Part shown: positions 1,689-34,119 of the stretch, in pieces
Numbering within the stretch: the first letter of the stretch is position 1
How the letters are laid out: every line of letters starts with the position of its first letter
DNA from: a virus
Taxonomy: Duplodnaviria > Caudoviricetes
Virus record (IMG/VR): IMGVR_UViG_3300036546_000109
Coordinates: 1 to 64,000 of that record
DNA length: 64,000 bases
Reading direction: 5' to 3' (one strand)
Made by a program: the position numbers and the translations under genes
The notes under the pieces: generated by a model
The model's input: the letters and a program-made list of their open reading frames with translations, nothing else
Told to the model about the DNA's origin: nothing
Databases searched by the model: none

Positions 1689-3050
1689 TTATTTCTCCTC
1701 AATGTAGCAGAACTTATCATTGCCCATCACTTCCTTATAGGCTTCTCTCATATACTGCATAACCCTCTCTTTGACTTCCTGCTTCACAATAACGCTATCA
1801 TGCTCTGGAAGCAAGGGTTCTTTTTCACAAATCAGTCGGTTAATCACATCGGCGATAATCTCACTGTCAAGATACTGGAGCTGCACACCTCTATCACTGA
1901 AGAAGTGGTGAGCTATTGGTTTATTGTGGGCTACAACAGCCTGACACACAGTGTGCCCCGGAAAGCGATCAGAGACATATAAACCAAAGAATTTAGAATC
2001 TTTCTCTTGATCTGTCCCCCACATCTCTTTGTCTCTAACCACCTCGCCAGTGACTTGCGTGAATGCACCACGATAGCTGTCTTCGTTCAAGCACACCATC
2101 AATGAGTGCTTACACAAATTCCTGATTGGATCATAAGTAGGCTTGTCATACTTCTCCCTGAAATAATTCACTTTACTCTGGTCAACTTCAAGGAACGGCA
2201 TCTTGGCACCATAAGGGTTGTATATCCCACCCCATTCATCTTCAATCCAAGAATCAATAACATCCGCATTAAATTCATATTCCTCTTCATACAAAAGAGA
2301 TGCGTGCATTGCTTTGAAGTCAAGCTCTGCTACAGGACTACCATCTAATTCCAATTTCTTTCTCTCATCGCTGTTCATAACCTGCACACCTCCGACAGTG
2401 TTGTAATGCCGACCACCAAAACCAATCTTATCCGAAAACACGCGCTTGTATTGCTGTGCTGAATAGACAAGGCTTCCTTTGGTAATCGTTGTGTTTTGCA
2501 AAATAGTGTTGAATGCTTCCATGTACGCACCAATCTTCTTGACGCCGGTATGCCCTCTCGTCGATTTTAGTGTTCCCGACGAACGATCTTTAATTTCCAC
2601 AAGCGGGAGTGGATCAACCTCATCTGACACATCTACACCAAAGAAAAGAGATAACCAAGCCTCTTTGAACATGCAAAGAGAGCCTACCATTACACCTTCT
2701 TTCCAGTCAGCAATACCGCCTATGAGTAGATCAACGTACCCACCAGTTTCAAGGATATCCAACAAAGCCACCATACGTTTATGAGAAATCTTCTGAGGAT
2801 TCCCTTTGTACGGGGCAAAGTCTCTAGGTACAGACAGACCAATGGCTCTGTACTTGATAGCACGAGCTGTGTTGGTGATTAGAGCAAGAATCTCTTTTCT
2901 GTAACCAAAGCCTATCTCATCCTCTAGCTTGGTAAGGATGTGCTTATACTTAGACCTCTGGTTGTAGTGGATATTGAAGTGAGTGGTAGTGGATTGTATT
3001 TCACTTCTTTCTCTCTTCTCTAATCTCCATAAATCTCTCTTCATCCACAC
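1689..3050 (-). CDS. family-A / T7-RNAP-like palm-domain protein (TV-Pol-like), paralogue 1
   Basis: GGRHY, ELDFKAMH (motif A Asp), RNLCK (motif B-like), LQYLDS, LPEHDS (motif C His-Asp); no exonuclease domain seen. Confidence 0.6.
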   Translation of the reverse strand: MWMKRDLWRLEKRERSEIQSTTTHFNIHYNQRSKYKHILTKLEDEIGFGYRKEILALITNTARAIKYRAIGLSVPRDFAPYKGNPQKISHKRMVALLDILETGGYVDLLIGGIADWKEGVMVGSLCMFKEAWLSLFFGVDVSDEVDPLPLVEIKDRSSGTLKSTRGHTGVKKIGAYMEAFNTILQNTTITKGSLVYSAQQYKRVFSDKIGFGGRHYNTVGGVQVMNSDERKKLELDGSPVAELDFKAMHASLLYEEEYEFNADVIDSWIEDEWGGIYNPYGAKMPFLEVDQSKVNYFREKYDKPTYDPIRNLCKHSLMVCLNEDSYRGAFTQVTGEVVRDKEMWGTDQEKDSKFFGLYVSDRFPGHTVCQAVVAHNKPIAHHFFSDRGVQLQYLDSEIIADVINRLICEKEPLLPEHDSVIVKQEVKERVMQYMREAYKEVMGNDKFCYIEEK

Positions 3051-3157
3051 CTCATTACAAGATAGTCAACCATAATACCCCTCTAAGCCCCGTGGCACTA
3101 AGGCTGGAGCGTTTTCATTCTCAAATGTTAAGAGCTGTTCTTTGCTCTGGTCTACCA

Positions 3158-3187
3158 ATAGTAACCCCACATCTCCCATCCTGTCAA
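3158..3187 (-). promoter_or_regulatory. sigma70-like promoter for the polymerase-palm gene
   Basis: TTGACA-N18-TACTAT. Confidence 0.6.
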
Positions 3188-3222
3188 CACACAAAACAAA
3201 TAAATTTTCTTGAAGAAATTGC

Positions 3223-3252
3223 TTGACGTGCAGGAGCAAAGGGATGTATTCT
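3223..3252 (+). promoter_or_regulatory. sigma70-like promoter, divergent from the previous one
   Basis: TTGACG-N18-TATTCT. Confidence 0.55.
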
Positions 3253-3285
3253 TCTCCTAGATGTTCAATAAAGAGGAGAGATGGA

Positions 3286-3471
3286 ATGAAAGATTACGGA
3301 CTACCCAAAGCAATTCCTCCTGTAGAGGTTAAGTGCTTTGCTGATGTGTTTGAGAATATGATTCGTGAGTTCGGTGTTGTAAACGCTTGTGAATGGTTTG
3401 GTCACCAATCAGACAGTGAATTTACGAAAGAGACAATTGCAGTCCTTCTGGAGAGGAGTGGGTTGAAATGA
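3286..3471 (+). CDS. hypothetical protein
   Basis: GAGGAG RBS before ATG 3286 (start adjusted from the ORF track). Confidence 0.6.
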   Translation: MKDYGLPKAIPPVEVKCFADVFENMIREFGVVNACEWFGHQSDSEFTKETIAVLLERSGLK

Positions 3472-3623
3472 AAGAACACCTTACAGAGGGTGGATGGGAG
3501 TGGTATCTGAGGCAGCTAAAAGAAAAGCTTGAACGTCCCTTGACGCAGAAAGAATACTCAGACATAATGAGGCTCTACATCGTTGGAACACCTGTTGATA
3601 AGACATTGGAGAAATTGAAATGA
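3468..3623 (+). CDS. small hypothetical protein, 51 aa
   Basis: ATGA overlaps at both ends; manually translated. Confidence 0.55.
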   Translation: MKEHLTEGGWEWYLRQLKEKLERPLTQKEYSDIMRLYIVGTPVDKTLEKLK

Positions 3624-4057
3624 CAATTGAAACACTGAATGAAATTAAAGCTGATGCTACAGCTCTACGCGCTGGCCTGCTTGATATGGCGGATAAGGTT
3701 AGTCTGGTTGAGGCGGAAGGGGTGGTGGTGCCAGCAGATGTGGATGTTGCTCTAGATGCAATTCTTGTTAATCTGGGTACTGTCCTCAGTTGGGTCGAGC
3801 AAGCTCTGCAAGCAATTACAGACGGAACGGAGGAACCAACTATTACTGCAATGCAAGCGTTTCTGAATGAGCTTAAGGCTGTCTTTGATAAATACTCTGC
3901 TGTATTTGAACGAATTGATGGTAGTGCTTACGGAACCAGCTACGGTGGTGCAGATTTCTTCCGTGTCACTGTAACAGACCCTGTTTCTGGAGATGTAGAG
4001 ACAAAAGATATTGTTCCTGCTGTAGCTGATACAATTACTTCAGCAGATTTGGTGTAA
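3620..4057 (+). CDS. hypothetical protein
   Basis: 145 aa ORF, GGAG RBS. Confidence 0.7.
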   Translation: MTIETLNEIKADATALRAGLLDMADKVSLVEAEGVVVPADVDVALDAILVNLGTVLSWVEQALQAITDGTEEPTITAMQAFLNELKAVFDKYSAVFERIDGSAYGTSYGGADFFRVTVTDPVSGDVETKDIVPAVADTITSADLV

Positions 4058-4161
4058 TTAGACATCAACGTGACATCTTTAGTGGGAAAAATGAGGGGTT
4101 AAATCAACGATCCCTCTTAACTCTCTAAGTTGTGCGTCTAAACAGAAAAGGAGACAAATGA

Positions 4162-4509
4162 ATGCTTAAAAACATTACTAAAGAAGAACGAGCTTTAATG
4201 CTTGAGAAGGCCAAAGCTAAGCGTGAAGAGAAAAAGAAAGCTGGTGAATCCCTTCGTCAGAATTATGCAGATGAGAATTACCACCGCGCATTGGCCTCAG
4301 AGCTTGGTGTACGTATGCCAGCCAGTTATATTCCTAACACTGAGACTAAATACTTGAAGCGAGCAGCTAAGCATTTTGGGGTGGATATCAAGGAATATTT
4401 GGAAGATTGTGGTGTCAAAACGTTGAAACAGCTTGTAGCCATGAATCCCGATATGAATATGGTGTGTGAGCTTGGCCTCTTTCTTGAATATGTAAAGGAG
4501 AAGAAATGA
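4162..4509 (+). CDS. hypothetical protein
   Basis: 115 aa, AAGGAG RBS. Confidence 0.7.
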   Translation: MLKNITKEERALMLEKAKAKREEKKKAGESLRQNYADENYHRALASELGVRMPASYIPNTETKYLKRAAKHFGVDIKEYLEDCGVKTLKQLVAMNPDMNMVCELGLFLEYVKEKK

Positions 4510-4611
4510 CAAAAGAGGAAAAGCTTGCAATTGTAGTTGAAGCCGTCTTGAAGCTATACGGACATATTGAAATACGAACGCGGCGCGATGATGAGCTTAT
4601 AAAGCTTCTTT

Positions 4612-4869
4612 ATGAAATTAAGAGAGGAGATGAGAAGAGTGAATCAAATCCAGATTGACTTCATCAAAGAGCTTGACCCAGAATCCCAGTCTGGTACGAT
4701 TCAGAGCATCCTTCTGCGTGATGATTTAAACATGTGCAACTACACAAAAACCTTGGAGCACTTGTTGCAAGTTACGATTGGGGAGCGTAAAATGCTAATC
4801 GAAGAGAATATGAAGCTTAGCAAAATTCTCAAAGATAGGAATTTGTATCATTTGATTTTGGAGGAATGA
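4612..4869 (+). CDS. hypothetical protein
   Basis: ORF in a tightly packed operon; true start may be slightly downstream. Confidence 0.55.
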   Translation: MKLREEMRRVNQIQIDFIKELDPESQSGTIQSILLRDDLNMCNYTKTLEHLLQVTIGERKMLIEENMKLSKILKDRNLYHLILEE

Positions 4870-5066
4870 AATTGAGCAATAAAAACATTTATAAAGAATC
4901 ACACTTTGTTGACTTTTACAAAAATCTAGAGAATTATGCTTATCTGCAAGGACTAGATTTCTCTGATGTGTCACGTATGCGTAGCGAAGTGATGATTGCT
5001 TTTATGGCGGGGCTTGGTGTAGAAGAAACATTCGATGCTGTTTTTCATGCAGAAGGGGAGCTTTAA
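4866..5066 (+). CDS. hypothetical protein
   Basis: ATGA overlap, GGAGG RBS. Confidence 0.6.
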   Translation: MKLSNKNIYKESHFVDFYKNLENYAYLQGLDFSDVSRMRSEVMIAFMAGLGVEETFDAVFHAEGEL

Positions 5067-5068
5067 TT

Positions 5069-5863
5069 ATGGGCGGTCGTACAGTTGAGGTCTGTGTGGA
5101 CGGGGAAACTATCGTTATCCCACGAAAGAAAACTCGTAGCACGCGCAATGGTGGTGTTCGTCAGGAAGTTAAGGAGAAATTTAAGGAGGAGCGAGAAGCA
5201 CGAATTATTCCAGTTGTAGCAAAGAACGAAAACCAGAAAAAGTATCTACACAGCTTGCAGTTTGACACAGTATCTGTAGGCAAGGGTAGTGCTGGGACAG
5301 GCAAGAGCTTCTGTGCCGCAGCAGTTGCTGCAAACAAATACCTGAAAGGGGAGATTAGTCAGATTATTGTCACACGTGCATACGTTCCGATGGGTAAAAC
5401 GACAGGATTTTGGCCTGGGTCGGTTGAGGATAAAATGCTGCCATTCCTGATGCCAATTCTGAGCACTATTAAAGAGCGACTAGGTGCTGGTCGGTATGAA
5501 GCAGAGTTCGGTAAGACTATTAAAATTCAACCGTTGGAAGCAATTCGTGGGATGAGTTTCCCCGCAGGAACTTTTCTGATTTGTGACGAAAGCCAAAACC
5601 TAACTGTTGAGGAAGTTCGATCAATTGTTACGCGCTTTGAGCCAGGGGCACAGGTGGCGTTTTGTGGTGATGATAAGCAACGTGATGTCAAGGGTGTTTC
5701 TGGGATTGTGTATCTGACCAACTTGATTAAAAAATACAAGCTACCTGACTGCTCTGTAGTAGAATTTTCATCTGAAGATATTGTTCGTTCAGGACTAACT
5801 AAAGCGTTTGTTGAAATCTTTGAAAAAGAGGGCAGTTCTGAAAATGTAAAGGAGGAAGCATGA
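5069..5863 (+). CDS. phoH: PhoH-family ATPase
   Basis: GSAGTGKS Walker A, LEAIRGMSF, LICDESQN, GDDKQRD, IVRSGL motifs. Confidence 0.92.
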   Translation: MGGRTVEVCVDGETIVIPRKKTRSTRNGGVRQEVKEKFKEEREARIIPVVAKNENQKKYLHSLQFDTVSVGKGSAGTGKSFCAAAVAANKYLKGEISQIIVTRAYVPMGKTTGFWPGSVEDKMLPFLMPILSTIKERLGAGRYEAEFGKTIKIQPLEAIRGMSFPAGTFLICDESQNLTVEEVRSIVTRFEPGAQVAFCGDDKQRDVKGVSGIVYLTNLIKKYKLPDCSVVEFSSEDIVRSGLTKAFVEIFEKEGSSENVKEEA

Positions 5864-6627
5864 ACGAAGATTTTAAAATGATGCCACTTGTGCAACCAAA
5901 GCGGGTGCTGACCAGGACTTTCCAGAACACCGAATATAAAATTCGTCTCGCTCGACCTATCACGGAGATTGATGACTTCGAGGAAGAGATTATGGTGTTT
6001 GAGGAAGCTTCTGAAGGGGATTTGGTTTCAATCCAGCTATCGAGTCCAGGTGGTTCCCTTGAGACGTGTGACTTCATCTGCCGACGAATGCTGGAATGCC
6101 AAGCGCCAATTGTTGTGGAGATTGGAATTACTTGCGCTTCGGCTGCATCCGCTATCTGTCTTCATGCCGATGAGTGGGTGATCCACGACAGCAGTACGAT
6201 GATGATCCACGCATGTTCGTACTCTCCTGGGTGGGGTAAAGAGGTTGATGTGTTTGCTTCTGCAACTTACACTAACCGCATCAATCGAGAGTGGTTGGAA
6301 CGGACTTATAAAGGGTTCCTTAGTGATAGCGAGATGCAATCGGTGTTGGACGGAAAGGATTTGTACTTCTACGCAGATGACCTGCGTGAACGCCTCCCAA
6401 AATACAAGGAATATCGTGAACAGCAGATGATGGGTATGTGTGAATGTGGTGATTGTGAAAAACAAGAACCACCACCATCCATTGAAGACATGATGTTCGA
6501 AGCTGCCAAGAAAGCTCTCGCTGCTCACGAAGCAGAGAAAGCTAAGAAGGAAGCTAAGGCCCGGAAAGCTGCTGAACGTAAACCGAAGGACACACCTTCC
6601 GAACAAAAACCGGAAGATGTTTCATAA
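5860..6627 (+). CDS. ClpP-like protease subunit
   Basis: LSSPGGSL, CASAASAI, MMIH motifs; charged C-terminal tail. Confidence 0.8.
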   Translation: MNEDFKMMPLVQPKRVLTRTFQNTEYKIRLARPITEIDDFEEEIMVFEEASEGDLVSIQLSSPGGSLETCDFICRRMLECQAPIVVEIGITCASAASAICLHADEWVIHDSSTMMIHACSYSPGWGKEVDVFASATYTNRINREWLERTYKGFLSDSEMQSVLDGKDLYFYADDLRERLPKYKEYREQQMMGMCECGDCEKQEPPPSIEDMMFEAAKKALAAHEAEKAKKEAKARKAAERKPKDTPSEQKPEDVS

Positions 6628-6634
6628 AATATCG

Positions 6635-6669
6635 TTGACACAGGGGCTAGCCTGATTTATCCTAGCCCC
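6635..6669 (+). promoter_or_regulatory. sigma70-like promoter overlapped by an inverted repeat
   Basis: TTGACA-N17-TATCCT; GGGGCTAG (6643-6650) / CTAGCCCC (6662-6669). Confidence 0.6.
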
Positions 6670-6695
6670 ATCAACACAGACAAGGAGATTCACAA

Positions 6696-7084
6696 ATGGC
6701 TAAACAAGAGTTTTCACCAGAATTTGAACTATTCGTAGCTTCCTACTATGCAAACAAAGTGGAATCGTGTAAGAAACGAGGAATTGATTTCAAGCTGAAT
6801 CTTGTTTCCGTTCGGAATCTCCTCCGCACTCGTAAATGCCCTTACACCGGTGTGGAGCTAACCGTCCCTCGTATGGGAAAGCCGGGCTGAGTACAGATAT
6901 TACCATTGATCGGATTGATAACACAAAACCATATGTGAAAGGTAATGTGATGGCTGTATCAAAGAAGATGAACAATTTGAAGAGCATTTTTGAGAATCCT
7001 GAGTATGGTATGGACTTTGAACAAGCTGCTAAAGTGATGAGTAAGATTAGTAAACGTGTTAAGAAAGTGAAGGAGAATAATTGA
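6696..7084 (+). pseudogene. HNH-like endonuclease split by a -1 frameshift
   Basis: Frame 1 KKRGIDFKL..CPYTG joins the -1 frame TIDRIDNTKPYVKGNVMAVS near 6875-6890. Confidence 0.7.
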
Positions 7085-7536
7085 TGGCAATCCGTAAAGT
7101 AAAAGGAAAGTGGGAAGTTGGGTATAAGGATACTTATTCTCTGAGCCATTCACTCAGCCCAATCATCTTCGCAGGACTAAAGAAGTTCCACGATGTTCTG
7201 GTTGAACGTAATCAGAGCGGAAAAACTATGGGTATTCCTCATGGTTATATGAAAGATGAAGACCAGTGGGTAACGGATTCAGATGTTCAAGGCTGGCTAG
7301 ATGATGTCAAGAAAATGATGTATGCGTTCGACCAAGATTCGGAGCCTAATATCAAAGATTACAATTTCAGCTACCCAAACGCTTTCAAAGATCGGGAAGA
7401 AGGATCGTCTGTAGATTTGACCTGTTCCAACCCAGCTGAGCAAGAGAGGTATCATAAAGATATGAAGGAGTGGCAGGAAAAGGTGGAAGAGGGTCTGAAG
7501 CTCTTCGGAGAAAAATATCAAGATTTGTGGTGGTAG
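7081..7536 (+). CDS. hypothetical protein
   Basis: 151 aa ORF ending QDLWW. Confidence 0.7.
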   Translation: MMAIRKVKGKWEVGYKDTYSLSHSLSPIIFAGLKKFHDVLVERNQSGKTMGIPHGYMKDEDQWVTDSDVQGWLDDVKKMMYAFDQDSEPNIKDYNFSYPNAFKDREEGSSVDLTCSNPAEQERYHKDMKEWQEKVEEGLKLFGEKYQDLWW

Positions 7537-7537
7537 T

Positions 7538-7816
7538 GTGGCTTGGTTTGTATTTGAATCTGAAGAAGTTATAATGGGGCCGTATCTGACCCGTAAAGAA
7601 GCAGAGCGTGATTTAGACATACAAATGACGGAGTGCTATTTGGGTGAAGATTACCCATCACCATACATTGATTTTGTAGAGCACGAAGATGATTGGTTTA
7701 ATTGGGAAGAGATGGACTTTACTGAGAACAGACTGTATTATGAAAGCGGTGTGAGGGGCTTAGATAATCTGCCCTTCAAACAAAGAATTAAGAAAAAATT
7801 TAAGGCTGTTGAGTAG
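7538..7816 (+). CDS. acidic hypothetical protein
   Basis: 92 aa ORF, operon packing. Confidence 0.6.
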   Translation: MAWFVFESEEVIMGPYLTRKEAERDLDIQMTECYLGEDYPSPYIDFVEHEDDWFNWEEMDFTENRLYYESGVRGLDNLPFKQRIKKKFKAVE

Positions 7817-7828
7817 GAGATTGGAGAA

Positions 7829-8047
7829 ATGAATCGCTACGCTCTTGTATACGGTCCAAGTGGTCAAAATATCTATCTACCTGTAGAATGTGATATGGAG
7901 CCAAGCTTCTGCGAGAATCCCTTTTGTGACAGCCCGTGTAATTGCGGCTACACATTCGATGAAGCAAAGGATGCGGTGATTCGTTATTACGAAGAAAAGA
8001 TTGAGCGCCTGAAAACATTGTCTGAGGAAGAATGGGAGAACATTTGA
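7829..8047 (+). CDS. hypothetical protein, Cys-rich
   Basis: GGAG RBS, 72 aa. Confidence 0.6.
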   Translation: MNRYALVYGPSGQNIYLPVECDMEPSFCENPFCDSPCNCGYTFDEAKDAVIRYYEEKIERLKTLSEEEWENI

Positions 8048-8048
8048 A

Positions 8049-8342
8049 ATGACAAGCATTAAGAAAGGACTTATCTGCAACCTAAGCCCACACAAATTCA
8101 ACCGCCTGAAAGAACGTGATGATGCTGTAATTGGACAAGCTTATTACACACCAAAAGGAGTGTTCCAATACAAATCAGAAGTGGCTCTTGAGTCTTTCTA
8201 CATCTGTCCATTTCTTTATATGAAGATTAAATGTAAGAAGCAACCAGAGAATCGTCTCAAAACTGTTTGCATTCGTGTAGACAGGTCTACAGGCTATGAC
8301 AATCTCTTCACTTGCTTTGTTGAAGACAACACTGTTCTGTAA
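8049..8342 (+). CDS. hypothetical protein
   Basis: 97 aa ORF. Confidence 0.55.
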   Translation: MTSIKKGLICNLSPHKFNRLKERDDAVIGQAYYTPKGVFQYKSEVALESFYICPFLYMKIKCKKQPENRLKTVCIRVDRSTGYDNLFTCFVEDNTVL

Positions 8343-8356
8343 TAAGGAGTCGAAGT

Positions 8357-8641: not shown

Positions 8642-8652
8642 GGAGGTAAATA

Positions 8653-9375
8653 ATGAAATACATGGGATCAAAAGCGCGTCACGCAAAAGAGCTTCTTCCA
8701 ATTATCTTGAAAGATCACACTCCTGATATGTGGTATGTAGAACCCTTTGTTGGTGGTGCTAATATGATTGATAAAGTGGACCCCAAGGTAGCACCTAAAC
8801 GTCTTGGTTGTGATTTCAATGAATACCTTATTGAAATGTGGATTTCTGCACAACTCGGGGAGCTGACTTATGATTATGTTACACCGGAACTGTATAAACA
8901 GGTGCGTGAAAATAAAGAAAATTATCCTAAAGGCTTTGTAGGATGGGTTGCTCACTGCTGCTCATACAATGGGAAGTGGTTTGGTGGTTTTGCTGGCAAG
9001 TTGGTTACAAAAGAGGGTAACGAACGAAACTATCAGACGGAAGCTGCCAATGCTGTCAAGAAACAGGTTGCGGTTATGCGGGATGTTATCTTCAAACATA
9101 AATCTGTATTTGACCTGACTTTTCCAAAGCCTTGCACTATTTACTGTGATCCGCCCTACGCAGGCACTACAAAATACAAAGATGACTTTAACCATGAAAG
9201 ATTCTATGATTGGTGTGTAGATCGTCACAAAGAAGGTCACAATGTATTTGTTTCGGAATATTGGATGCCAGAAGATGGTTTTGAGTGCATCTGGTCAAAA
9301 GAGGTTAACAACTCATTGACTAAAGATACTGGCAGTAAGAAAGGTGTTGAGAAGTTGTTTATCCCGAGGGCTTAA
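8653..9375 (+). CDS. Dam/D12-class N6-adenine DNA methyltransferase
   Basis: KYMGSK, EPFVGGA (motif I), YCDPPY (motif IV), VFVSEY. Confidence 0.88.
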   Translation: MKYMGSKARHAKELLPIILKDHTPDMWYVEPFVGGANMIDKVDPKVAPKRLGCDFNEYLIEMWISAQLGELTYDYVTPELYKQVRENKENYPKGFVGWVAHCCSYNGKWFGGFAGKLVTKEGNERNYQTEAANAVKKQVAVMRDVIFKHKSVFDLTFPKPCTIYCDPPYAGTTKYKDDFNHERFYDWCVDRHKEGHNVFVSEYWMPEDGFECIWSKEVNNSLTKDTGSKKGVEKLFIPRA

Positions 9376-9378
9376 ATA

Positions 9379-9657: not shown

Positions 9658-9666
9658 GAGAAAACA

Positions 9667-11187: not shown

Positions 11188-11212
11188 CACACAGGAGCCA
11201 CTGGCTTATTCT
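11184..11212 (+). promoter_or_regulatory. sigma70-like promoter
   Basis: TTGACA-N17-TATTCT. Confidence 0.65.
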
Positions 11213-14309: not shown

Positions 14310-14541
14310 AATTCGTGTACGTGTTCCAAATGGGAAGCCTATCTTCTACCTTGACACAGGCGTAATCCTTGATAATATTCGCTTTGTCAAATACAGCACA
14401 GAAGATGATGCTCCAGCTTTCACTGTTGTAAAACGAGATGGGACGTTCTACACTCAAGCCCCTGTCAACGGAAAGAACATCCATTGCACACTAGAACAAG
14501 CCATCAATCGTTATGGATTGTCTGTATATTTGGTGAGCTAA
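14299..14541 (+). CDS. hypothetical protein
   Basis: Start adjusted to MSNKIRV. Confidence 0.6.
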   Translation: MSNKIRVRVPNGKPIFYLDTGVILDNIRFVKYSTEDDAPAFTVVKRDGTFYTQAPVNGKNIHCTLEQAINRYGLSVYLVS

Positions 14542-14555
14542 ATAAGGAGAGCATT

Positions 14556-15341
14556 ATGTCTGATTATAAAGATGAAAATATTTGGTTGATGCAAGGTGAT
14601 TGTCTAGAACGTATGAAGGAGATTCCTGATGGGAGTGTTGACATAACTGTTACAAGTCCACCATACGATAATCTGCGCACTTATAACGGAAATAATGCGC
14701 TATGGGGCGAGCATGTTTGGAAATCGGCCATTAAAGACCTATACCGTGTTACTAAAGATGGTGGCGTGGTCGTTTGGGTTGTTGGTGATGCCACTATAAA
14801 GGGCAGTGAGACAGGCACATCTTTTAAGCAAGCGCTTTGGGCTATGGAGTGTGGCTTTAGGTTGCATGATACGATGATTTACCAGACAAACAAGCCGCCA
14901 CAAACACACAGACGTTATGAGCAGCAGTGGGAATATATGTTTGTTTTTTCCAAGTGCTCCCCAAAAACTTTTAATCCCATACTTGAGCCATCTGAAAATG
15001 CGGGACAAAAACGAACGTCAACGATGAGGCAAGACGGTGACAACCTGTCAAATAGAAGTGCGAGGGGTGTCGTGAAAGCCATGAAGCAAAAAGGCAACAT
15101 TTGGTATTTGCCTAGAGGTGCGCGGAAATGTAAGCTTGAGGTTTTGCACCCTGCAACATTCCCAGAACAACTAGCACACGACCATATCATTAGCTGGTCA
15201 AACGGTGGTGATGTTGTGTTCGATCCGTTCACAGGAAGCGGTACTACAGGAAAAATGGCTAAACTGACAGGTAGAAAATTCATTGGAATTGAAATGGATG
15301 AAAATTACTTCGAGATTGCAAAGAAAAGGATTTTAGGGTGA
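14556..15341 (+). CDS. N4-cytosine/N6-adenine DNA methyltransferase (beta class)
   Basis: GDCLE, TSPPY, HPATFP, DPFTGSGTT, FIGIE; TAAGGAG RBS before ATG 14556. Confidence 0.9.
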   Translation: MSDYKDENIWLMQGDCLERMKEIPDGSVDITVTSPPYDNLRTYNGNNALWGEHVWKSAIKDLYRVTKDGGVVVWVVGDATIKGSETGTSFKQALWAMECGFRLHDTMIYQTNKPPQTHRRYEQQWEYMFVFSKCSPKTFNPILEPSENAGQKRTSTMRQDGDNLSNRSARGVVKAMKQKGNIWYLPRGARKCKLEVLHPATFPEQLAHDHIISWSNGGDVVFDPFTGSGTTGKMAKLTGRKFIGIEMDENYFEIAKKRILG

Positions 15342-22737: not shown

Positions 22738-22824
22738 GGTGTTTTCCTTAGCCTTTCTGGCTGTTTCGTTTGCTGTTGGTGTTATTCTAGCGCCCCTTTC
22801 GAGGCGCTGCAAGCTTTATTTTCC

Positions 22825-24457: not shown

Positions 24458-24806
24458 TTCGTTTTTTCCTTAGCCTTTGGGCTTTTCGTTTGCTGTTGGG
24501 GTCATCCTAACAGCTTGGTTTGTGGTGTCAACAGCTACTTCGCTTTATTTTTAATCTTTCTGTTTGACGCTATCTGTTTGAGTATTGGCCAGACTACAGC
24601 CTGCATACATTCTTCGATGATAAAATCGGCCATAATCAGTAGCCAAGCCAGATCAGAACAGCCTGAGCTTCGTAGCTGTTACGCAGCCCCATGTCCTGCA
24701 CAAACTCTTCCCAGCTAGCCCCATCAGGAAGCCTAGACAGGTTGCGAAAGCTTCCATAGCTGCCATTTGTGTGCTGTTAGGGAGCCATTCGTTAGGGGGC
24801 TTCATA

Positions 24807-26884: not shown

Positions 26885-26979
26885 CTTGCTGTGTTAGGTT
26901 TTCGTTTCTGTTGGGGTTATTCTGACCCAATGCGCCTGTGTCGTCAAGAGGTTTTAAAGGAAAACCCACACAAAAGATT

Positions 26980-27195: not shown

Positions 27196-27207
27196 TGTGT
27201 ACGCTCC

Positions 27208-27951
27208 TCAAAACAAAATTACAAACGTTATAAAGCTTAGGACAACACCCCCAATATAAGGGCTAAGCTTTTCTTTGTCAACAGACATTTTCTTATTTAC
27301 TACTGATTTCACTATGTCTTTTAGCTTGTTGTGTGTGAGGATGAAAACGTTTCCACCTTCCCACCATTCGCGTTTTTCTACGATGTTTTTCCCTACTATC
27401 TCTGCCCGATCTTGCCATTCTGGCAGCATTTCTTCGTCTTCTTCTGCGTCAGGATCAACCCCGAGGGCTTTACAGCGAGATTTCCATGCTCTATGCCTCT
27501 TTTGCTCCAAAGCGAAGATAAGCTGTTTAAATTCTTCCTCGCTTATCTCTTCATTCTCAAAAGCTCTATAAAGCTCCGCCTCTTGCTTATCCAGACGATC
27601 CAATGTCTTCTCTTGTGGAACAATTTGATGTGCAATTGGAATTGTTTTCTTAGCTGGGGTTTTCTTTTGATTAAGACCCAAAGCTTCATCACTAAAAGCT
27701 TTAATGTTCGGCTTTCCGTCTTTTGTCCAGACTTTATCGGTCGGAAGCTCACCTGCTACAGAAAGCTTGTTCGGCAATTCTTTACGCATAGCCCAATAGT
27801 CTGACCCTTGCAAGTCATTTATCTGACCAGTGATAGACGACCGAAACTGGCGTCCGTTTCTCGACAGACCTTTCCATTCGTCCTGTGTCCCGTCTTCGCA
27901 CGTAGCACCTATGCCAGACCTAAATCCGTAACCCCTTGGGATGCTAATCAT
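27208..27951 (-). CDS. hypothetical protein with a C-terminal membrane anchor
   Basis: 247 aa, GAGG RBS, own promoter. Confidence 0.7.
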   Translation of the reverse strand: MISIPRGYGFRSGIGATCEDGTQDEWKGLSRNGRQFRSSITGQINDLQGSDYWAMRKELPNKLSVAGELPTDKVWTKDGKPNIKAFSDEALGLNQKKTPAKKTIPIAHQIVPQEKTLDRLDKQEAELYRAFENEEISEEEFKQLIFALEQKRHRAWKSRCKALGVDPDAEEDEEMLPEWQDRAEIVGKNIVEKREWWEGGNVFILTHNKLKDIVKSVVNKKMSVDKEKLSPYIGGVVLSFITFVILF

Positions 27952-28172
27952 TTTCCTTTTCCTCTAGTCGTATGCTTTCCAAGATATTAGAGCAAGGTAG
28001 ACACGTTCGTCAAGAAGATTTTTATAAATTTCTGCGACTTCCTTCACAACACGTTCTTTATTTTCCGCATACCACAGAACACCTTGTTCCCGGCTTTTAA
28101 AATAAGGTACATCCGACCTACTGAACCAGACATTTTCTTTTCCTCTTACAGCTAAATTGCTTTGATGTGCCT

Positions 28173-28211
28173 AGAATAAAAGAAAAGCTCCGAGGAGTCA
28201 ACCAAGGAGCT
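28173..28211 (-). terminator. intrinsic terminator
   Basis: AAGCTCC...GGAGCTT stem followed by TTCTTTTATTCT. Confidence 0.6.
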
Positions 28212-28374
28212 TATGAAAAGAATCTATTGATCTTAGTCAGCCGATTGCCAACGGTTATTACGATTCTTGCGAAGCTCACGGAAGTTTTTATGTTCCTTGC
28301 GCTCTTTCTGCTTGCTGTTGCTATATTCGTTGTGTTGATCTTGTGCATTCATACGGATTTTCATTTCTCTCTCC

Positions 28375-28626
28375 TCAATACATTTTCGTCTGTTTAAGCT
28401 GCTTTTCTCGGGCAGTTGAGATATTCTGGATCAGGATTAATCCCTTGTCAAAAGCTTTCTTTGCTTTTTCTTCATCTTTGAACATCTCTCGAACATCGTG
28501 GGAAAGCTGAGCTGTTGCCCATGCTCGCCAATATCCCAAATCATAAGCGTTGATGGCTTTAGAAACGTATTGTAGATTTTTGTATACGTTCCAAGCTGCT
28601 GAGAGGTGTTGGTTATAGCCTAGCAT
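28375..28626 (-). CDS. hypothetical protein
   Basis: CAGGAG RBS. Confidence 0.6.
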   Translation of the reverse strand: MLGYNQHLSAAWNVYKNLQYVSKAINAYDLGYWRAWATAQLSHDVREMFKDEEKAKKAFDKGLILIQNISTAREKQLKQTKMY

Positions 28627-28644
28627 AGCTATTCTCCTGAAAAA

Positions 28645-28887
28645 TTACACAATTTTGGGATGTGTCTCACACTGCATCTTAACATCATACCCACGGCCAT
28701 CAAGTTTAAGCAACTTTTTACCTGTATCTACCCATATGTAGCCGTATTCTTTCTTGTGAAAGCTGCACATATACGGGCCTTCCGCATAAACTCCCGCGCC
28801 CTTCTTTAGCCAGTAATTGCACATACCCATTTGTTCGTTGGTCAGCCACTCGGCGTCAAGTTTTTCAATCTGAGACATGGTTTTCAT
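28645..28887 (-). CDS. hypothetical protein
   Basis: GGAG RBS. Confidence 0.6.
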   Translation of the reverse strand: MKTMSQIEKLDAEWLTNEQMGMCNYWLKKGAGVYAEGPYMCSFHKKEYGYIWVDTGKKLLKLDGRGYDVKMQCETHPKIV

Positions 28888-28955
28888 TTCGCAACTCCGG
28901 TCGGTTTATGGTTATTAGTATAGACTTGACATTTGCTTGTGTATAATTGGAATTT

Positions 28956-30566
28956 TTAATCGCCACATAAAGCTGATAAGATTTTCTCAATGACAGGAAC
29001 TGTCCAACCATTTCCCAATACCCTATATCGCTGATTATCTGATATTCCCGCAGTGTACCCATCATACAGGCTCAGAGATAAACAGGCTTTCCCCGTTTGC
29101 ATTGGAATGTATCCAGTAATGACACTCTCTGCAAACCAGTAGCAAATTCTCAAAATCTGATCTGTACTCTTCATAGATAAACGGGACAATGTGGTGAATG
29201 TGGAACTGCTGTCCATCATCATGTTCAAAATGGATTCCGCATCGTTGACATGTAGCATTGTCTCGTTTCCAAACAAATTTAATTGCATCTTTCCAAGTGT
29301 CTGTTGAGTAAAAAGACTGTCTTTCTGAGGTAACTCCCCCCTTCCAATTTGCGCTATTTTCCCCTCTATTATACAAATAGAAACACCCTGAACTACAGAA
29401 ACCTCCCCTGTTCTTTGAAAGAGGCACGGTTGTTTCTGTTCCGCACTGTCTGCACTCAAAAACTGTTCTATTTGTTGGTTGCGAGGCTTTGTTTGTAGCG
29501 GTATCCCCATACCTACACTTTCTGGAGCAGTATATTTTGTTAGCAGAAACTTTTGATGAGTATTGTACCCCACAGCCTTTACAAACTCTTGTAGTTCTGT
29601 TTCTTCTACATTCAAAACAAGTTTTAGCAACTTGGGATTTTTCTTTACCACACTTACAAAGTTCTTTGCTTGGTCTAAACATGTAAAAATTTCTACCTCT
29701 TTCTTAATAAATCCAAAACCCTGCGCCCTTTCGCACTCGATCGGTGTAAACTTTCTACGTTCTCCGTTTTCCTTTTCAACTAGGAAATTATGCTGCCAAC
29801 TGCTTGTAGTAATACAAGGCATTTTGTCCACTAATCGAGTACCGCCTTTGTTATAACCTCTCGGCCAAGTCCACACCCCTTTATAATCTTTATCTTCCAA
29901 AATGTCTACAATCTTTGGCGAATGTTCCAAATCTTTTATATCTTTTTCGCCGTAAGTTGTTGTTTGCAGGAACGAGGACCAGTAGTAACGCTCTCGATTT
30001 TGAGCCGTAAAAGCCCTTGAATTAATTTTTACCGGCCAAGTCTTAAGATGGTGTGTTATTACGTCTTCAAATTCCGCACGCATTTTTACATTCTCGAGTA
30101 GAAAATCAACGCTTCCTTGGTAATCCTCAATTTCTTTTTTAATCCTCACGAACTCAAAGAATAGTGCAGATCGAGGGTCATTGAAATTCAATTCACTCCC
30201 AGCAAAGCTAAAGCCCTGGCAAGGTGAACCTGCCAAAATAAGGTCAACCTTCTGGTAGTAATTCTCGTCCCCCAATCGCCATTTACCATTTTCAGACTCA
30301 ATATAATTTCCACTAATTTTAACTGTCCGAACGTCACCAAGCCGAATGATATCAGGATGATTTTTCTCGCTAATCTTAATTGCGTTTGGTTCAATTTCTG
30401 AGGCAAAATACTTTATATTACTAAATCCAAGATTTTTAAGCGCTTGCAAACCACAGCTTATACCGTCAAATAAGCTAATAACTACGATTTCACGGGATAG
30501 CAGGTTTTGTTTGTTTGTTTCAAAACAACTAATATTCTCTAAAAATTCACACTCAAATCGACTCAC
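28956..30566 (-). CDS. dcm: C5 cytosine DNA methyltransferase carrying a 217-codon in-frame insertion between motifs IX and X
   Basis: FDGISCG (I), GSPCQ (IV), ENV (VI), QNRER (VIII), FTPIECERAQGF (IX) ... DGYT..YRVLGNGWTVPV (X). Confidence 0.9.
   Translation of the reverse strand: MSRFECEFLENISCFETNKQNLLSREIVVISLFDGISCGLQALKNLGFSNIKYFASEIEPNAIKISEKNHPDIIRLGDVRTVKISGNYIESENGKWRLGDENYYQKVDLILAGSPCQGFSFAGSELNFNDPRSALFFEFVRIKKEIEDYQGSVDFLLENVKMRAEFEDVITHHLKTWPVKINSRAFTAQNRERYYWSSFLQTTTYGEKDIKDLEHSPKIVDILEDKDYKGVWTWPRGYNKGGTRLVDKMPCITTSSWQHNFLVEKENGERRKFTPIECERAQGFGFIKKEVEIFTCLDQAKNFVSVVKKNPKLLKLVLNVEETELQEFVKAVGYNTHQKFLLTKYTAPESVGMGIPLQTKPRNQQIEQFLSADSAEQKQPCLFQRTGEVSVVQGVSICIIEGKIAQIGRGELPQKDSLFTQQTLGKMQLNLFGNETMLHVNDAESILNMMMDSSSTFTTLSRLSMKSTDQILRICYWFAESVITGYIPMQTGKACLSLSLYDGYTAGISDNQRYRVLGNGWTVPVIEKILSALCGD
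29062..29682 (-). mobile_element. Zn-finger HNH homing endonuclease gene nested out of frame inside the C5 MTase
   Basis: Multiple CxxC/YCSxxC repeats, GENSANWKGG, RDNATCQRCG..HIHHI..NLLLVCRECH; GAGGT upstream of the ATG. Confidence 0.88.
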
Positions 30567-30766
30567 AATAATCCTCCCACTGTAAACAATTTATCTTCAA
30601 AATCTTTAAGGGCTTGGAGATATCCCTTGTCCTCATCATCTTGGGATGGACAGCCCTCCCAATGCTTCAAATGCTGCACAAGAGCGCTATAACCAAGCTT
30701 TATTGCATATTCACAATCCTCGACTCCCAATTGATACCCTTCGTTGTATTCTGTAGAGGTTTTCAT
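30563..30766 (-). CDS. hypothetical protein
   Basis: 67 aa, TAGG RBS. Confidence 0.6.
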   Translation of the reverse strand: MKTSTEYNEGYQLGVEDCEYAIKLGYSALVQHLKHWEGCPSQDDEDKGYLQALKDFEDKLFTVGGLL

Positions 30767-30767
30767 A

Positions 30768-30944
30768 TCACATTCCTAATTCAATTTCAGCTTGTTTTAG
30801 AAGGCTTCCCAATGAAGCTGACCACAGAATAGGCTCTTTCTTATCAGTCGTCAAGCTAAAGACTGTCCAGAGTCTATCAATCTTTTCTATGGAAAACCCC
30901 GATTCAATAAGCATGTTGTATAGCTTAGATGAATATGTGTTCAT
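30768..30944 (-). CDS. small hypothetical protein, 58 aa
   Basis: Manually translated MNTYSSKLY...; fills the gap between neighbours. Confidence 0.45.
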   Translation of the reverse strand: MNTYSSKLYNMLIESGFSIEKIDRLWTVFSLTTDKKEPILWSASLGSLLKQAEIELGM

Positions 30945-30953
30945 TTAGAGTCG

Positions 30954-31295
30954 TTACTCGTTGAATGCTTTCCACATATTCAACACCTTTTGTTCCAACT
31001 TGTCAAGAGAATCCTCAACCTGTTTTCGTGTCAGGGAGTAGATTTTAAGATCGCACCACTCGCCGTCTTTGTTCTCATGGCACAAGCTCACTTCAAATGA
31101 TTCACTCTTATACCCATGAATCAATAAATCTGAATGCAAGATATTCAACAAGGTCTTGTTATTGCATTGACACAGCGGGATGGAGAATTTTAGGATTTCA
31201 TCCTCTTGCAAACGCCTTTGGTAGTGCTTAACCACACCATAGCTTTCGTTGTCCGTCTTCCAGCATTTGTAGCCTTTTTCTTCTAGAATTTTCAT
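30954..31295 (-). CDS. hypothetical protein
   Basis: GAGG RBS; upstream TTGCAA-N17-TAACAT. Confidence 0.65.
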   Translation of the reverse strand: MKILEEKGYKCWKTDNESYGVVKHYQRRLQEDEILKFSIPLCQCNNKTLLNILHSDLLIHGYKSESFEVSLCHENKDGEWCDLKIYSLTRKQVEDSLDKLEQKVLNMWKAFNE

Positions 31296-31367
31296 CTATT
31301 CCTCACGTTCTTGCGGATATTGTTAATTTTCAAGGATGTTACATGCTTTTCCTTACGATTGCAAGGG

Positions 31368-31643
31368 TTATTTTAAGCTCTGAAGAAATTCCTCGCAGTA
31401 AATACGCAGGGCTTTCAGCACGTCTTCACAGCTCCGACCTTGTGCAATCTCAATAAATTCTTCTGGGTTGCCATCTTCATTTTCTAATCCTGTATCAGCA
31501 TATACAACAAAATCACCACCAAGTTCTTCCATGCTAATTGTAACACCGTTAGCAATAAAGAACTCCTCATCTTCTTGATTGATTTTTGTAATATTAAGAA
31601 TTTCTTTGTAACCATTTGGTGCTTTATAGAGTGTAACTTTCAT
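31368..31643 (-). CDS. hypothetical protein
   Basis: ATGA overlap, AAGGAG RBS. Confidence 0.65.
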   Translation of the reverse strand: MKVTLYKAPNGYKEILNITKINQEDEEFFIANGVTISMEELGGDFVVYADTGLENEDGNPEEFIEIAQGRSCEDVLKALRIYCEEFLQSLK

Positions 31644-32101
31644 TGGGATAGCTCCTTAATCTCTTCAGCAAGCCACACCGCCTTGCGTTGTAGGTATTCA
31701 ATTTCACTTTTTACGTCTGCGAGTTCCCGTTCTTTCTTGGCGAGAATGGCTTTCTTACTTTTACATACGCCCTTATCTACAGCAAAAAGCGGGTAACAGT
31801 GGTTCTGGTGGCTCAAATTATATACTTTGTCGTACTCGTCTGTATCTGATTTGTGAATAAATTCAACATCGTCAAGATTGCAAACAAACTCAAGGTCAAT
31901 TTTTTCTTCGTCTAGAATTGTTGCGTGGGATGATAGGTATTGACCAGAAAGACCAGACCAATAGGTGTCTACAAGACCGATACCCTCCCAGTATACACAC
32001 TGATTGTCTAAACACCAGTATGCCGTGCCAGAGCCAGCATGTTTTGCTCGGTATTCAGTATCATTCTTAAAATACCACCGGAACACATCACCATTTTTCA
32101 T
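31640..32101 (-). CDS. hypothetical protein
   Basis: GGAGG RBS, 153 aa. Confidence 0.7.
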   Translation of the reverse strand: MKNGDVFRWYFKNDTEYRAKHAGSGTAYWCLDNQCVYWEGIGLVDTYWSGLSGQYLSSHATILDEEKIDLEFVCNLDDVEFIHKSDTDEYDKVYNLSHQNHCYPLFAVDKGVCKSKKAILAKKERELADVKSEIEYLQRKAVWLAEEIKELSQ

Positions 32102-32102
32102 C

Positions 32103-32444
32103 TTATTCCTCCAAAAACTTCAGATAGTTGGTGTAATGCTTACGAATATTCTCTGCACCAACAGGATTTTGAGAATGGACCAAAACTTCAGGTAAAAGTA
32201 TACCACCATCCATTACAAAATCAAGCATTCTCAGAAAACATGTGTACCCTGTACGTTCTTCTCCCTGGCCTGTAAAGTCTTGGATATCGTGGTCAAAAGA
32301 AACAATATCGTAATTAGACAGTAGCAAAGCATCTTCAAATTCTCTATAAGTCCTTACAATTTCCCAAGACATATCTAGTGGATATTTGATCCACGTAACA
32401 TCTTGAGGGTTACGCTCATCATCTAGAAACAGACCTTTCACCAT
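32103..32444 (-). CDS. cyclic-phosphate-processing receiver (REC)-like domain protein
   Basis: LFLDDER.P, VSFDHD, TGY, VHSQNPVG pattern. Confidence 0.7.
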   Translation of the reverse strand: MVKGLFLDDERNPQDVTWIKYPLDMSWEIVRTYREFEDALLLSNYDIVSFDHDIQDFTGQGEERTGYTCFLRMLDFVMDGGILLPEVLVHSQNPVGAENIRKHYTNYLKFLEE

Positions 32445-32524
32445 TTATCCCGTGCCTCCAAAAGCATCAGTTGTTTGGCATACTTTACAATGCGTTTTGT
32501 GTCGTTGTCAACACCTATTTCTTA

Positions 32525-32842
32525 CTAATTTTTCAGGATTTTCTCGATAAAGTCGTCAAAACCTTCACACTGCTCTGAAGGTTTCTGGGTATTTGTGGTC
32601 CACTTACGGGTGGATGGGAAATAATACAGGTCGTCAATAAACCACATCCCCGGCTTTCTTAGTTCAGCATGACCAAATCCTTTATCAACTAACTCCTTCG
32701 CAAAAAGGATATCGTTCTTACCTGCCAACTTGTAAGCATTCTTGTGATGTCCGTGTGATTCCGCCAATACCTCCCTGTAAATCCTATCCTCTTCGACTCT
32801 ACCAAGACCAACCCTTACAATATCATTTGCTGTAATAATCAT
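32525..32842 (-). CDS. hypothetical protein
   Basis: GAGGG RBS, 105 aa. Confidence 0.6.
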   Translation of the reverse strand: MIITANDIVRVGLGRVEEDRIYREVLAESHGHHKNAYKLAGKNDILFAKELVDKGFGHAELRKPGMWFIDDLYYFPSTRKWTTNTQKPSEQCEGFDDFIEKILKN

Positions 32843-32850
32843 ATATCCCT

Positions 32851-34119
32851 CTACGCCAAAATGTGATTCTTGTACACTGTCCCGTCTTGTTTGAAGCTTA
32901 CAGTCACAGGAATCATTGTGTCAATACCAAATCTTGCACGGAAACAATCTCCCATCGTCTGAATGAGAAGTTCTTCATATTTTTCTGCCACTACGAAGCT
33001 ATCATGCACAGGGAGGATAGGAATTTCTTTCTCCACAAATACAGAAAGGATATCTGCCGCCAGATTGCTGTCATCATTCTGTAGACGACGCCCGTAGCTA
33101 TCCCCATTACAGAACAATTCCACAAAATCGGGGTAGCTATTGCAGATAGCATCAAACACACCACTCGCACGACCAAGTGTATAAATCAGTTTTTCTTCGT
33201 CTGGCAGTTTATTTATCTCGCTCTGAATAGCTTTGATAGCATCTTTGTCATCATAAGAGTTGAACATAATGTTTACAGCGAGCTTGACAATTTCACGATC
33301 AACGTAGTTCTCTGGATCATCCACAATTCCAGAATAAACATCAGCCGGTAGCTCGTGCATATCCAATCCTTCTTTGGCTGCTGCTATGCGAAAATGAAGG
33401 TTACGAAAATCTACCTCTGTCACTGCCTCACCATTGATTGTCACACCAAACCGCTCTTGATTTTTCTTATGCTTGAGGCGAAGGATGTCAGCTTTGTAAA
33501 ACCTACCCCCATACTCAAAACTTTCGTTGAACACTCGGCAATAAATGTTGGTCAAAACATTACCATTCTGGTCACGAATATCTGATTGTTCATTAATTTT
33601 GTTCAGTTTGCGGATAAGTGTTTCCATTTCTTGCGTCATCTCTGTACTCCTAAACGGGATAGGCTTCTTTTTGGGGTTGCGCAGCTCAACAACCGAACAC
33701 GTATCTAGATAAAATTCTTCATATGTCGGGTGCATGGCTTGCACGTCAAAAAAGGAAAAGAATTTCTCTGTGGGGAGGATGTAGCTCACACGCCTTTTAT
33801 CTGGGTCGGGGTGAGCCTGTCCCTTAACGTTGCTAATGTACCCTTTCTCAACCAGAAAATCAATTGCTTTTATCACCCTTCTAGGGTTAATCTTTTTCTT
33901 TGCACTGCTACTAGCAGATGTGTTACGGGAATAGACAAGCAACTGACCCTTACGAGCACAAGCCAATAGGTTAGCAAAGATGACATTTAGTGTTCGTATA
34001 TCCGAATACCCAATACCTCTTGTCTTAGCTATGATGTCTACCCTGACCTTAAGATCATAAGTCAACAACCTTGTATTAACCACCCTATACTCTAGGTATT
34101 CTTCCTCCTCTGTATCCAT
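32851..34119 (-). CDS. family-A / T7-RNAP-like palm-domain protein (TV-Pol-like), paralogue 2
   Basis: GGRFY, EVDFRNLH (motif A Asp), REIVK, LQNDDS, LPVHDS (motif C). Confidence 0.65.
   Translation of the reverse strand: MDTEEEEYLEYRVVNTRLLTYDLKVRVDIIAKTRGIGYSDIRTLNVIFANLLACARKGQLLVYSRNTSASSSAKKKINPRRVIKAIDFLVEKGYISNVKGQAHPDPDKRRVSYILPTEKFFSFFDVQAMHPTYEEFYLDTCSVVELRNPKKKPIPFRSTEMTQEMETLIRKLNKINEQSDIRDQNGNVLTNIYCRVFNESFEYGGRFYKADILRLKHKKNQERFGVTINGEAVTEVDFRNLHFRIAAAKEGLDMHELPADVYSGIVDDPENYVDREIVKLAVNIMFNSYDDKDAIKAIQSEINKLPDEEKLIYTLGRASGVFDAICNSYPDFVELFCNGDSYGRRLQNDDSNLAADILSVFVEKEIPILPVHDSFVVAEKYEELLIQTMGDCFRARFGIDTMIPVTVSFKQDGTVYKNHILA

Follow-up and report, generated by a model that had tools for sequence, protein, structure and literature searches.

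Two paralogous divPolA2-type minimal polymerases of a Caudoviricetes phage are each preceded by the same gene-specific leader element

The stretch of DNA analysed here (the window) comprises the first 64 kb (64,000 nucleotides) of the virus record IMGVR_UViG_3300036546_000109 (Duplodnaviria; Caudoviricetes), a complete phage genome of 87,181 bp with direct terminal repeats. Analysis of the window revealed that two minus-strand genes, here called P1 and P2, encode members of the divPolA2 family of minimal polymerases, and that each is preceded by the same short leader element, which is found nowhere else in the genome and recurs upstream of divPolA2-type genes in related phages. We tentatively read P1 and P2 as site-targeted initiator or primer polymerases for the T7-like replisome of the phage, possibly autoregulated through the element, and assign this reading a probability of roughly 0.35. 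Among deposited phages, the closest to it is Pseudomonas phage vB_PsaM_M1, an isolated member of the Ounavirinae with a genome of 89 kb.

A preliminary description of the window, made from the sequence alone, had proposed two paralogous minus-strand open reading frames (ORFs) with five ordered motifs in common. Both ORFs were recovered (Table 1), as were all of the motifs: YKRVF..GGRHY / YCRVF..GGRFY, ELDFKAMH / EVDFRNLH, RNLCK / REIVK, LQYLDS / LQNDDS and LPEHDS / LPVHDS (P1 / P2). The paralogy is well beyond chance, with ~400 residues aligned at 21% identity (BLASTP E 8e-13) and both proteins assigned to phrog_4756, a group without assigned function. The whole genome holds exactly these two copies, which are, judged by their sequences, old and diverged. 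The true start of P1 is likely the ATG at 3044, giving 451 amino acids (aa), and not the GTG at 3050, because close homologues (one of them 98% identical) are 451 aa long. A Pfam scan of both proteins gave no match at E <= 1, DNA_pol_A included; P2 has a weak HTH_36 match. A protein atlas search returned only clusters of 'hypothetical protein'.

The divPolA2 family was named by Yutin, Tolstoy, Mutz, Wolf, Krupovic and Koonin (2024, Virol J 21:200; PMC11348598), who described an active palm without exonuclease, without a canonical or homologous thumb and with an unassignable N-terminal domain, present as 2–3 paralogues per genome alongside a regular DNA polymerase (DNAP). They reported structural matches to DNAPs and to mitochondrial or N4 RNA polymerases (RNAPs), and suggested a repair DNAP or an RNAP (PMC11348598). 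P1 and P2 are members of this family, so that their fold, paralogy and functional question are already published. Their family profile aligned with the reference AUR84708 (Vibrio phage 1.063.O) at an hhalign probability of 99.2% (E 1.3e-19, 326 columns), BLASTP to the same reference gave 4e-11 and 3e-8, and the P1 model matched a protein of the barbavirus Rheinheimera phage Barba31A in BFVD with E 2.8e-21. The profile matched 9,641 clusters at 50% identity, and the family includes ORF100 of ICP1, the model phage of Vibrio cholerae. Like the published proteins, P1 and P2 join an N-terminal globular domain to a palm/fingers core, lack an exonuclease, coexist with a regular DNAP and match PolA, mitochondrial RNAP and N4 RNAP in structure. 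They differ in that the regular polymerase here is PolA and not PolB, that motif-A Asp+5 is His (E in the reference) and motif C is HDS (FDE in the reference), and that the N-terminal domain looks winged-helix-like where the paper reports no detectable similarity.

Two checks had been set beforehand, one for a palm fold in the predicted structure and one for conservation of the motif A and motif C aspartates among homologues. The palm is present: the full-length AlphaFold2 model, made for P1 (predicted local distance difference test, pLDDT, 94.4; predicted template modelling score, pTM, 0.87), contains a palm and fingers core of the family-A/T7-RNAP type. All top Foldseek matches in the PDB were family-A DNAPs or human mitochondrial RNAP, with E 3e-5 and up. 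A Foldseek-independent structure search (VIA) gave Z scores of 13.2 for the apicoplast polymerase (apPol), 12.8 for Aquifex Pol I, 12.2 for Pol nu and 11.9 for Klenow, alongside 11.9 for yeast mitochondrial RNAP, 11.4 for T7 DNAP, 10.6 for T7 RNAP and ~7–8 for the N4 RNAPs. No exonuclease domain is present, as had been proposed. The structural alignments to polymerases cover residues ~148–453 only. The N-terminal region of ~200 aa that had been described ahead of the motifs does exist, and it resolves into a domain of ~145 aa and a reduced thumb region. Modelled alone, this domain matched winged-helix domains only (CodY, Crp/FNR, MarR, Fur, Cdc6/ORC and eS10), with weak scores, and we therefore call it winged-helix-like and claim nothing firmer. 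In the thumb position the P1 model has only one 16-residue helix (170–185) before the hairpin, with no canonical thumb or processivity elements. The relationship to family A is visible at the level of the fold only. Searches of PDB sequences with phmmer and hmmsearch were empty, and hhalign likewise gave no connection to the PolA of the phage itself.

Conservation was assessed in an alignment of 47 proteins spanning both paralogue groups and, more widely, over 333 homologues. The columns invariant among the 47 are R203, F205, G212-G213-R214, Y216, R230, E242, D244, H249, R310, K314, N322, G388, Q392, D395, H417 and D418. In P1 the core is made up of a beta-hairpin (E200-206/E212-219 in the model) carrying GGR214, motif A (E242/D244/H249), motif B (R310/K314/N322), Q392/D395 and motif C (H417/D418/S419). 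Both catalytic aspartates, D244 and D418, are 100% conserved among the 333, as are K314, R230 and H417; R214 (332/333), H249 (330/333), R310 (329/333) and N322 (326/333, 98%) are near-invariant, and the motif C triplet is HDS in 94%. The O-helix pattern is R310-x3-K314-x3-(M/N/L)-x3-N322, set against R-K-F-Y in Klenow and R-K-M-Y in T7 RNAP, and the F762-equivalent position holds N, M or L in the 333 members where PolA has Phe. With equivalences to PolA and RNAP residues assigned from motif spacing and predicted helices or secondary structure, the active site appears to depart from the sugar-gate residues of DNAPs, with H249 for the PolA Glu, M/N for the Phe and N322 for the Tyr of PolA and RNAP. 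This suggests a sugar selection that differs from that of canonical DNAPs and of CCPol, which keeps Glu and Phe and uses deoxynucleoside triphosphates (dNTPs); the pattern itself does not tell the substrate. In the divPolA2 reference AUR84708 (25469–26761 of its phage), motif-A Asp+5 is Glu and motif C reads F-D-E, as in PolA DNA polymerases, and the family may hold two active-site types that differ in substrate (Glu/F-D-E and His/H-D-S).

A repeat search revealed a match of ~36 nt directly upstream of both P1 and P2. On the gene strand the core of 13 nt reads GCCTTAGTGCCAC, and the complete 87-kb genome has just the two exact copies that lie in the window. As the preliminary description had it, both genes open their strand at a divergent junction. 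A sigma-70-like promoter that matches the consensus at 10/12 positions precedes each of them. Both elements lie downstream of this match and 35–50 nt ahead of the start codon, and they fall in the transcribed leader because they stand between promoter and start codon. An nhmmer profile of 49 positions, built from 12 instances, was searched against the complete genome and 44 related loci (~400 kb). Every match with E < 1e-3 sits 12–86 nt upstream of a divPolA2-type gene, with none elsewhere in the searched DNA; this genome accounts for 2 of the matches, IMG/VR loci for about 20 and vB_PsaM_M1 for 1. Counted by gene copy, the element is present in 11 of 15, from eight genomes or contigs. A sigma-70-like match of at least 9/12 was found within 130 nt upstream of the element in 11/20 loci versus 13.5% of background windows.

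P1 and P2 each head a minus-strand operon of small early genes without known function. The genes directly downstream (57 aa after P1, 105 aa after P2) have no family match and are not conserved among related loci, and the comparison of neighbours across these loci found none conserved next to divPolA2-type genes. From the recurrence of element and promoter, with nothing else conserved nearby, promoter, element and polymerase gene therefore form a unit that has persisted through evolution. Relatives keep two same-strand copies at a spacing of 26–31 kb, two copies being present in 4/5 complete relatives, and P1/P2-type genes are syntenic core genes of a clade of 85–93 kb phages. A 400-aa ORF considered as the second paralogue in vB_PsaM_M1 was rejected. 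The gene-specific leader element appears to be new and is not described by Yutin et al. 2024 (PMC11348598).

Several other interpretations of the leader and further candidate copies were rejected or found no support. For an RNA hairpin or translational operator, single-sequence folds were no better than shuffles (z 0.18 and 1.97), the RNAalifold consensus reached only -1.3 kcal/mol with no covariation, and a hand-drawn 8-bp stem failed to outscore shuffles and fell below a +1 slide. Because RNA structure thus has neither covariation nor other support, the element is probably a DNA site. A sigma-54 promoter on the opposite strand (TGGCAC) has no conserved -12 TTGC at the correct spacing. Possible element copies at 42530 and 77763 carry 2 mismatches each, which is chance level, and what seemed a third copy at 59185 is a hairpin resembling a terminator (z -2.6) that follows the tail-fibre gene. 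This hairpin (59148–59260, minus strand) consists of GCAGCGGGGCUUAGUGCCCCGGCUGC followed by a U-run, and its match to 11/13 bases of the element core is probably coincidence. Concerted similarity of the two elements within a genome is not general, 4/15 copies being without an element. Upstream of P1-type genes in the relatives L054 (G001) and L005, the element is a short, almost perfect palindrome, AGCCTTTAT-C-TATAAGGCT, and its flanks in the window are more like a direct repeat (GCCTTAG...GGCTTAG).

In reading P1 and P2 as site-targeted initiators we infer the following steps. Host RNA polymerase would probably transcribe both genes early, from the sigma-70-type promoters. The N-terminal domain would dock the enzyme on the leader element, where the polymerase core would start a chain de novo and make a short primer, possibly RNA. 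PolA and the gp4-like primase-helicase would extend this primer, and each gene-plus-element pair would mark a replication start site. Binding inside its own leader could also autoregulate the gene. In favour of this, the element is unique to P1 and P2 in the genome and tied to divPolA2 genes in relatives, and the fused winged-helix-like domain is, from its model, a plausible site-specific DNA binder, alongside the weak HTH_36 match of P2. The phage encodes a T7-type replisome, made up of the gp4-like primase-helicase and the complete PolA that had already been recognised in the preliminary description, and a scan of ~45 window proteins brought up neither an RNAP nor a sigma factor nor a canonical initiator. 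Also consistent with it are the position of both genes at divergent junctions, the spacing kept in relatives, the apparent departures from the DNAP sugar gate and a motif C (HDS) as in T7 RNAP. In ICP1, an early bidirectional theta origin has been mapped 'near the 60 kb position' (PMC7145576), and the homologue ORF100 lies at 58,951–60,618 of ICP1_2006_E; no functional mention of ORF100 was found in the literature on ICP1. The T7-like replisome of ICP1 is exploited by PLE-like satellites, whose initiator slot is filled either by a RepA_N protein or by one with a 'DNA Pol I domain' (PMC9410903).

A number of points weigh against this interpretation. The phage already has a DnaG-type primase-helicase, and the position of the element, 12–86 nt from the start codon and downstream of the promoter, fits a plain autoregulatory operator with no need of an origin. 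The winged-helix matches score weakly (Z <= 5.6, Foldseek E >= 0.08). The putative recognition helices of P1 and P2 differ and their element cores are identical, and no clear covariation was found between the putative recognition helix and the core. The element went undetected in 4/15 gene copies, and its profile was not found in ICP1, where the coincidence of origin and ORF100 is of low resolution and the strain used has an upstream CRISPR-Cas deletion. GC-skew minima coincide with both divergent junctions, and they were not counted as independent evidence because skew follows the coding strand. Extended to the whole family, the proposal would be that divPolA2 proteins are self-contained, sequence-targeted origin primer synthases that replace the origin priming of T7 RNAP in phages without a phage RNAP, which we regard as possible but doubtful. 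If true, the two paralogues would define two origins ~30 kb apart, and the family would represent a third kind of replication initiator-primase, very widespread at more than 9,600 sequence clusters.

A rival reading is a dedicated single-subunit RNAP. The element would then be its own promoter, and each paralogue would take over its own minus-strand operon after the first transcripts of host RNAP, or would serve other gene sets through unrecognised promoters. The structural matches to mitochondrial, T7 and N4 RNAPs (Z 11.9, 10.6 and 7.8) about equal those to DNAPs, motif C is HDS, the O-helix follows the R-x3-K-x3-M of T7 RNAP and the steric-gate position has no Glu. An extra N-terminal DNA-binding domain is also how T7 and N4 RNAPs bind promoters (PMC7581432), and the RNAP option was raised by Yutin et al. 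(PMC11348598). We nevertheless consider it unlikely, as the repeat search found no repeated phage-promoter family, and the sole conserved motif of the genome-wide promoter test has two copies in 87 kb, each before a polymerase gene itself. The operon starts have sigma-70-like promoters, the near-universal motif B Tyr (Y639 in T7 RNAP) is Asn in 98% of members, and T7 RNAP has an unrelated N-terminal domain.

The place of the element between promoter and start codon is the classic operator position and would suit an accessory DNAP for repair, translesion or recombination-dependent synthesis, the element being a mere operator for autogenous repression through the N-terminal domain. Such a role is improbable in our view: it is hard to see why a repair polymerase would have a site-specific DNA-binding domain, or would be kept as two 21%-identical copies at fixed spacing, and the PolA sugar-gate Glu/Phe and motif B Tyr appear lost, with no canonical thumb or processivity elements. 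It does gain from the top Foldseek matches being DNAPs (human mitochondrial RNAP also being among the top), from the coexistence of the family with a regular replicative DNAP (Yutin et al., PMC11348598) and from Q392, which by the equivalence assigned here corresponds to the DNAP-type Gln (Klenow Q849) and not to the RNAP His. An early nucleotidyltransferase for host takeover or counter-defence, acting for instance in template-independent or decoy nucleic-acid synthesis apart from genome replication, seems very unlikely. P1 and P2 have early-type promoters and stand among small, fast-evolving early genes, in neighbourhoods that vary between phages (also PMC11348598), and their active-site variants are unusual; against that, they have no link to a known defence or anti-defence family, are syntenic core genes and not accessory cargo, and conserve the template-contacting residues (the R214 hairpin, R230 and R310/K314).

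The preliminary description had named the TV-Pol family as a possible identity, and no specific link was supported; the homology is instead to the divPolA2 reference and the barbavirus protein. The TV-Pol-type replication protein of the Zamilon virophage ranked only 50 in BFVD (E 1e-3), level with ordinary PolAs, and a tblastn search against the Microcystis phage Ma-LMM01 record of a phage collection gave no match. The features of the TV-Pol minimal core, namely the hairpin Arg, two Asp and RxxxK (Iyer, Abhiman and Aravind 2008; PMC2579912), are all present: P1 and P2 have an exonuclease-free PolA-superfamily core with the beta-hairpin Arg (R214), the two palm Asp (D244, D418) and the fingers RxxxK (R310, K314), and both families occur in mobile elements and viruses beside a regular polymerase. 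The TV-Pol thumb consists of two antiparallel coiled-coil helices; the P1 model shows a single helix ahead of the hairpin, and by Yutin et al. divPolA2 has no homologous thumb (PMC11348598). There is no D5-like helicase, all-helical N-domain, resolvase, integrase or transposase near P1 and P2, whose neighbours are small early genes, none conserved. The characterised TV-Pol member, the A-family enzyme CCPol-MP of SCCmec, has been proven to act as a primase, with de novo starts at a preferred site adjacent to its own operon (Bebel et al. 2020; PMC7581432), and counts among the points for the initiator reading. CCPol keeps the Glu/Phe sugar-gate residues of PolA (E710 and F762 equivalents), uses dNTPs and needs a small partner with an OB-fold that binds single-stranded DNA (PMC7581432). 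P1 and P2 differ from it in lacking a conserved small OB-fold partner downstream, in apparently lacking the Glu/Phe residues (by spacing and predicted helices) and in not being recognisable as PolA by sequence, as CCPol is.

With the T7-like RNAPs (T7, mitochondrial, N4 RNAPII and vRNAP), P1 and P2 share the palm/fingers fold (Z 7–12), the H-D-S of motif C and an added module that would bind DNA, which in the RNAPs confers site-specific de novo initiation. They are less than half the size and have an unrelated N-terminal domain, the motif B Tyr (Y639) has given way to Asn, His stands where RNAPs have Gly after motif A, and the genome has no genome-wide promoter family. T7 RNAP at the T7 primary origin and mitochondrial RNAP in the replication of mitochondrial DNA also make replication primers. 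By analogy only, the arrangement recalls the winged-helix Rep initiators of iteron plasmids (RepE, RepA), in which a winged-helix protein is encoded beside its own cis site and the site can be autorepression operator and origin at once. Rep proteins differ in having no polymerase domain, and here a single element of ~45 bp is seen with no iteron array.

divPolA2 is a very large phage family with an intact polymerase active site. To what is published, this analysis adds the leader element, the view of the N-terminal domain as winged-helix-like and, as read from the alignments, the His/HDS/Asn active-site signature of the P1/P2 subgroup, and function thereby becomes directly testable. The element is the family's first candidate cis-acting partner and turns the choice between repair DNAP and RNAP into specific questions of binding, priming and origin mapping in cultivable relatives (vB_PsaM_M1, ICP1). 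A related question is how a T7-like replisome is started at its origin when the phage has no T7-type RNAP. Should P1 and P2 turn out to start chains de novo at specific sites with ~300 catalytic residues, they would represent a minimal PolA-fold initiating polymerase, of interest to enzymologists.

Table 1. Positions of P1, P2, their leader elements and promoters, and the replisome genes in the window
Feature	Position	Strand	Evidence
P1, divPolA2-type minimal polymerase, 451-453 aa	1689..3050	-	ORF; phrog_4756 E 3.6e-69; AlphaFold pLDDT 94.4; PolA/RNAP fold
P1 N-terminal winged-helix-like domain, residues ~1-145	2616..3050	-	domain model pLDDT 91.6; weak winged-helix matches
P1 polymerase core, residues ~148-453	1692..2609	-	invariant columns; structural alignment range 148-453
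Leader element of P1, core GCCTTAGTGCCAC at 3092-3104	3072..3115	-	repeat search; exact 13-mer; nhmmer E 3.8e-10
Sigma-70-like promoter of P1, TTGACA-N18-TACTAT, ~42 nt upstream of element	3158..3187	-	consensus match only
P2, divPolA2-type minimal polymerase, 422 aa	32851..34119	-	ORF; phrog_4756 E 1.7e-58; all P1 invariant columns shared
Leader element of P2, core GCCTTAGTGCCAC at 34169-34181	34149..34194	-	repeat search; exact 13-mer; nhmmer E 5.8e-9
Sigma-70-like promoter of P2, TTGACA-N17-GAGAAT, ~40 nt upstream of element	34235..34263	-	consensus match only
gp4-like primase-helicase	38422..40140	+	phrog_239 E 1.9e-145
Full-length replicative PolA	41185..43740	+	phrog_17 E 1.8e-103

Further genes of the window encode an exonuclease, a ligase, ribonucleotide reductase, ThyX and dUTPase. 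A search for a bacterial-genome or satellite context of the family yielded 4 contigs of metagenome-assembled genomes only, and these are phage-genome-like. In the P2 operon, an exact GTGTTGACA -35-like motif at 32506–32514 (minus strand), within the 80 nt that separate the first from the second gene downstream of P2, suggests an internal promoter; the motif GTGTTGACA is not enriched in the window (23 found, 18 expected). Between the primase-helicase and PolA genes lies an HNH endonuclease gene (40243–41121, plus strand; phrog_99 E 5e-55), a setting typical of homing endonucleases inserted into replication modules, and a second HNH-like ORF was found at 310–621 (minus strand). The block of replication and nucleotide-metabolism genes is closed by a 166-aa protein (55680–56180, plus strand) with HTH_36 above the Pfam cut-off (30.3 bits versus 25) and DUF6945, a candidate DNA-binding, replication or regulatory protein. 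A cytosine-C5-type DNA methyltransferase of 536 aa is encoded at 28956–30566 (minus strand); methyltransferase profiles match its residues 18–284 and 491–534, and the ~200 middle residues without any match may form a large region for target recognition or represent an insertion. Two more DNA methyltransferases are found at 8653–9375 and 14484–15341. Finally, a family of 26-nt direct repeats (TTTCGTTTGCTGTTGGTGTTATTCTA-like) has three copies, at 22764–22789, 24484–24509 and 26899–26924, in the 20–28 kb region where gene strand assignment is unclear, and may reflect small paralogous genes.

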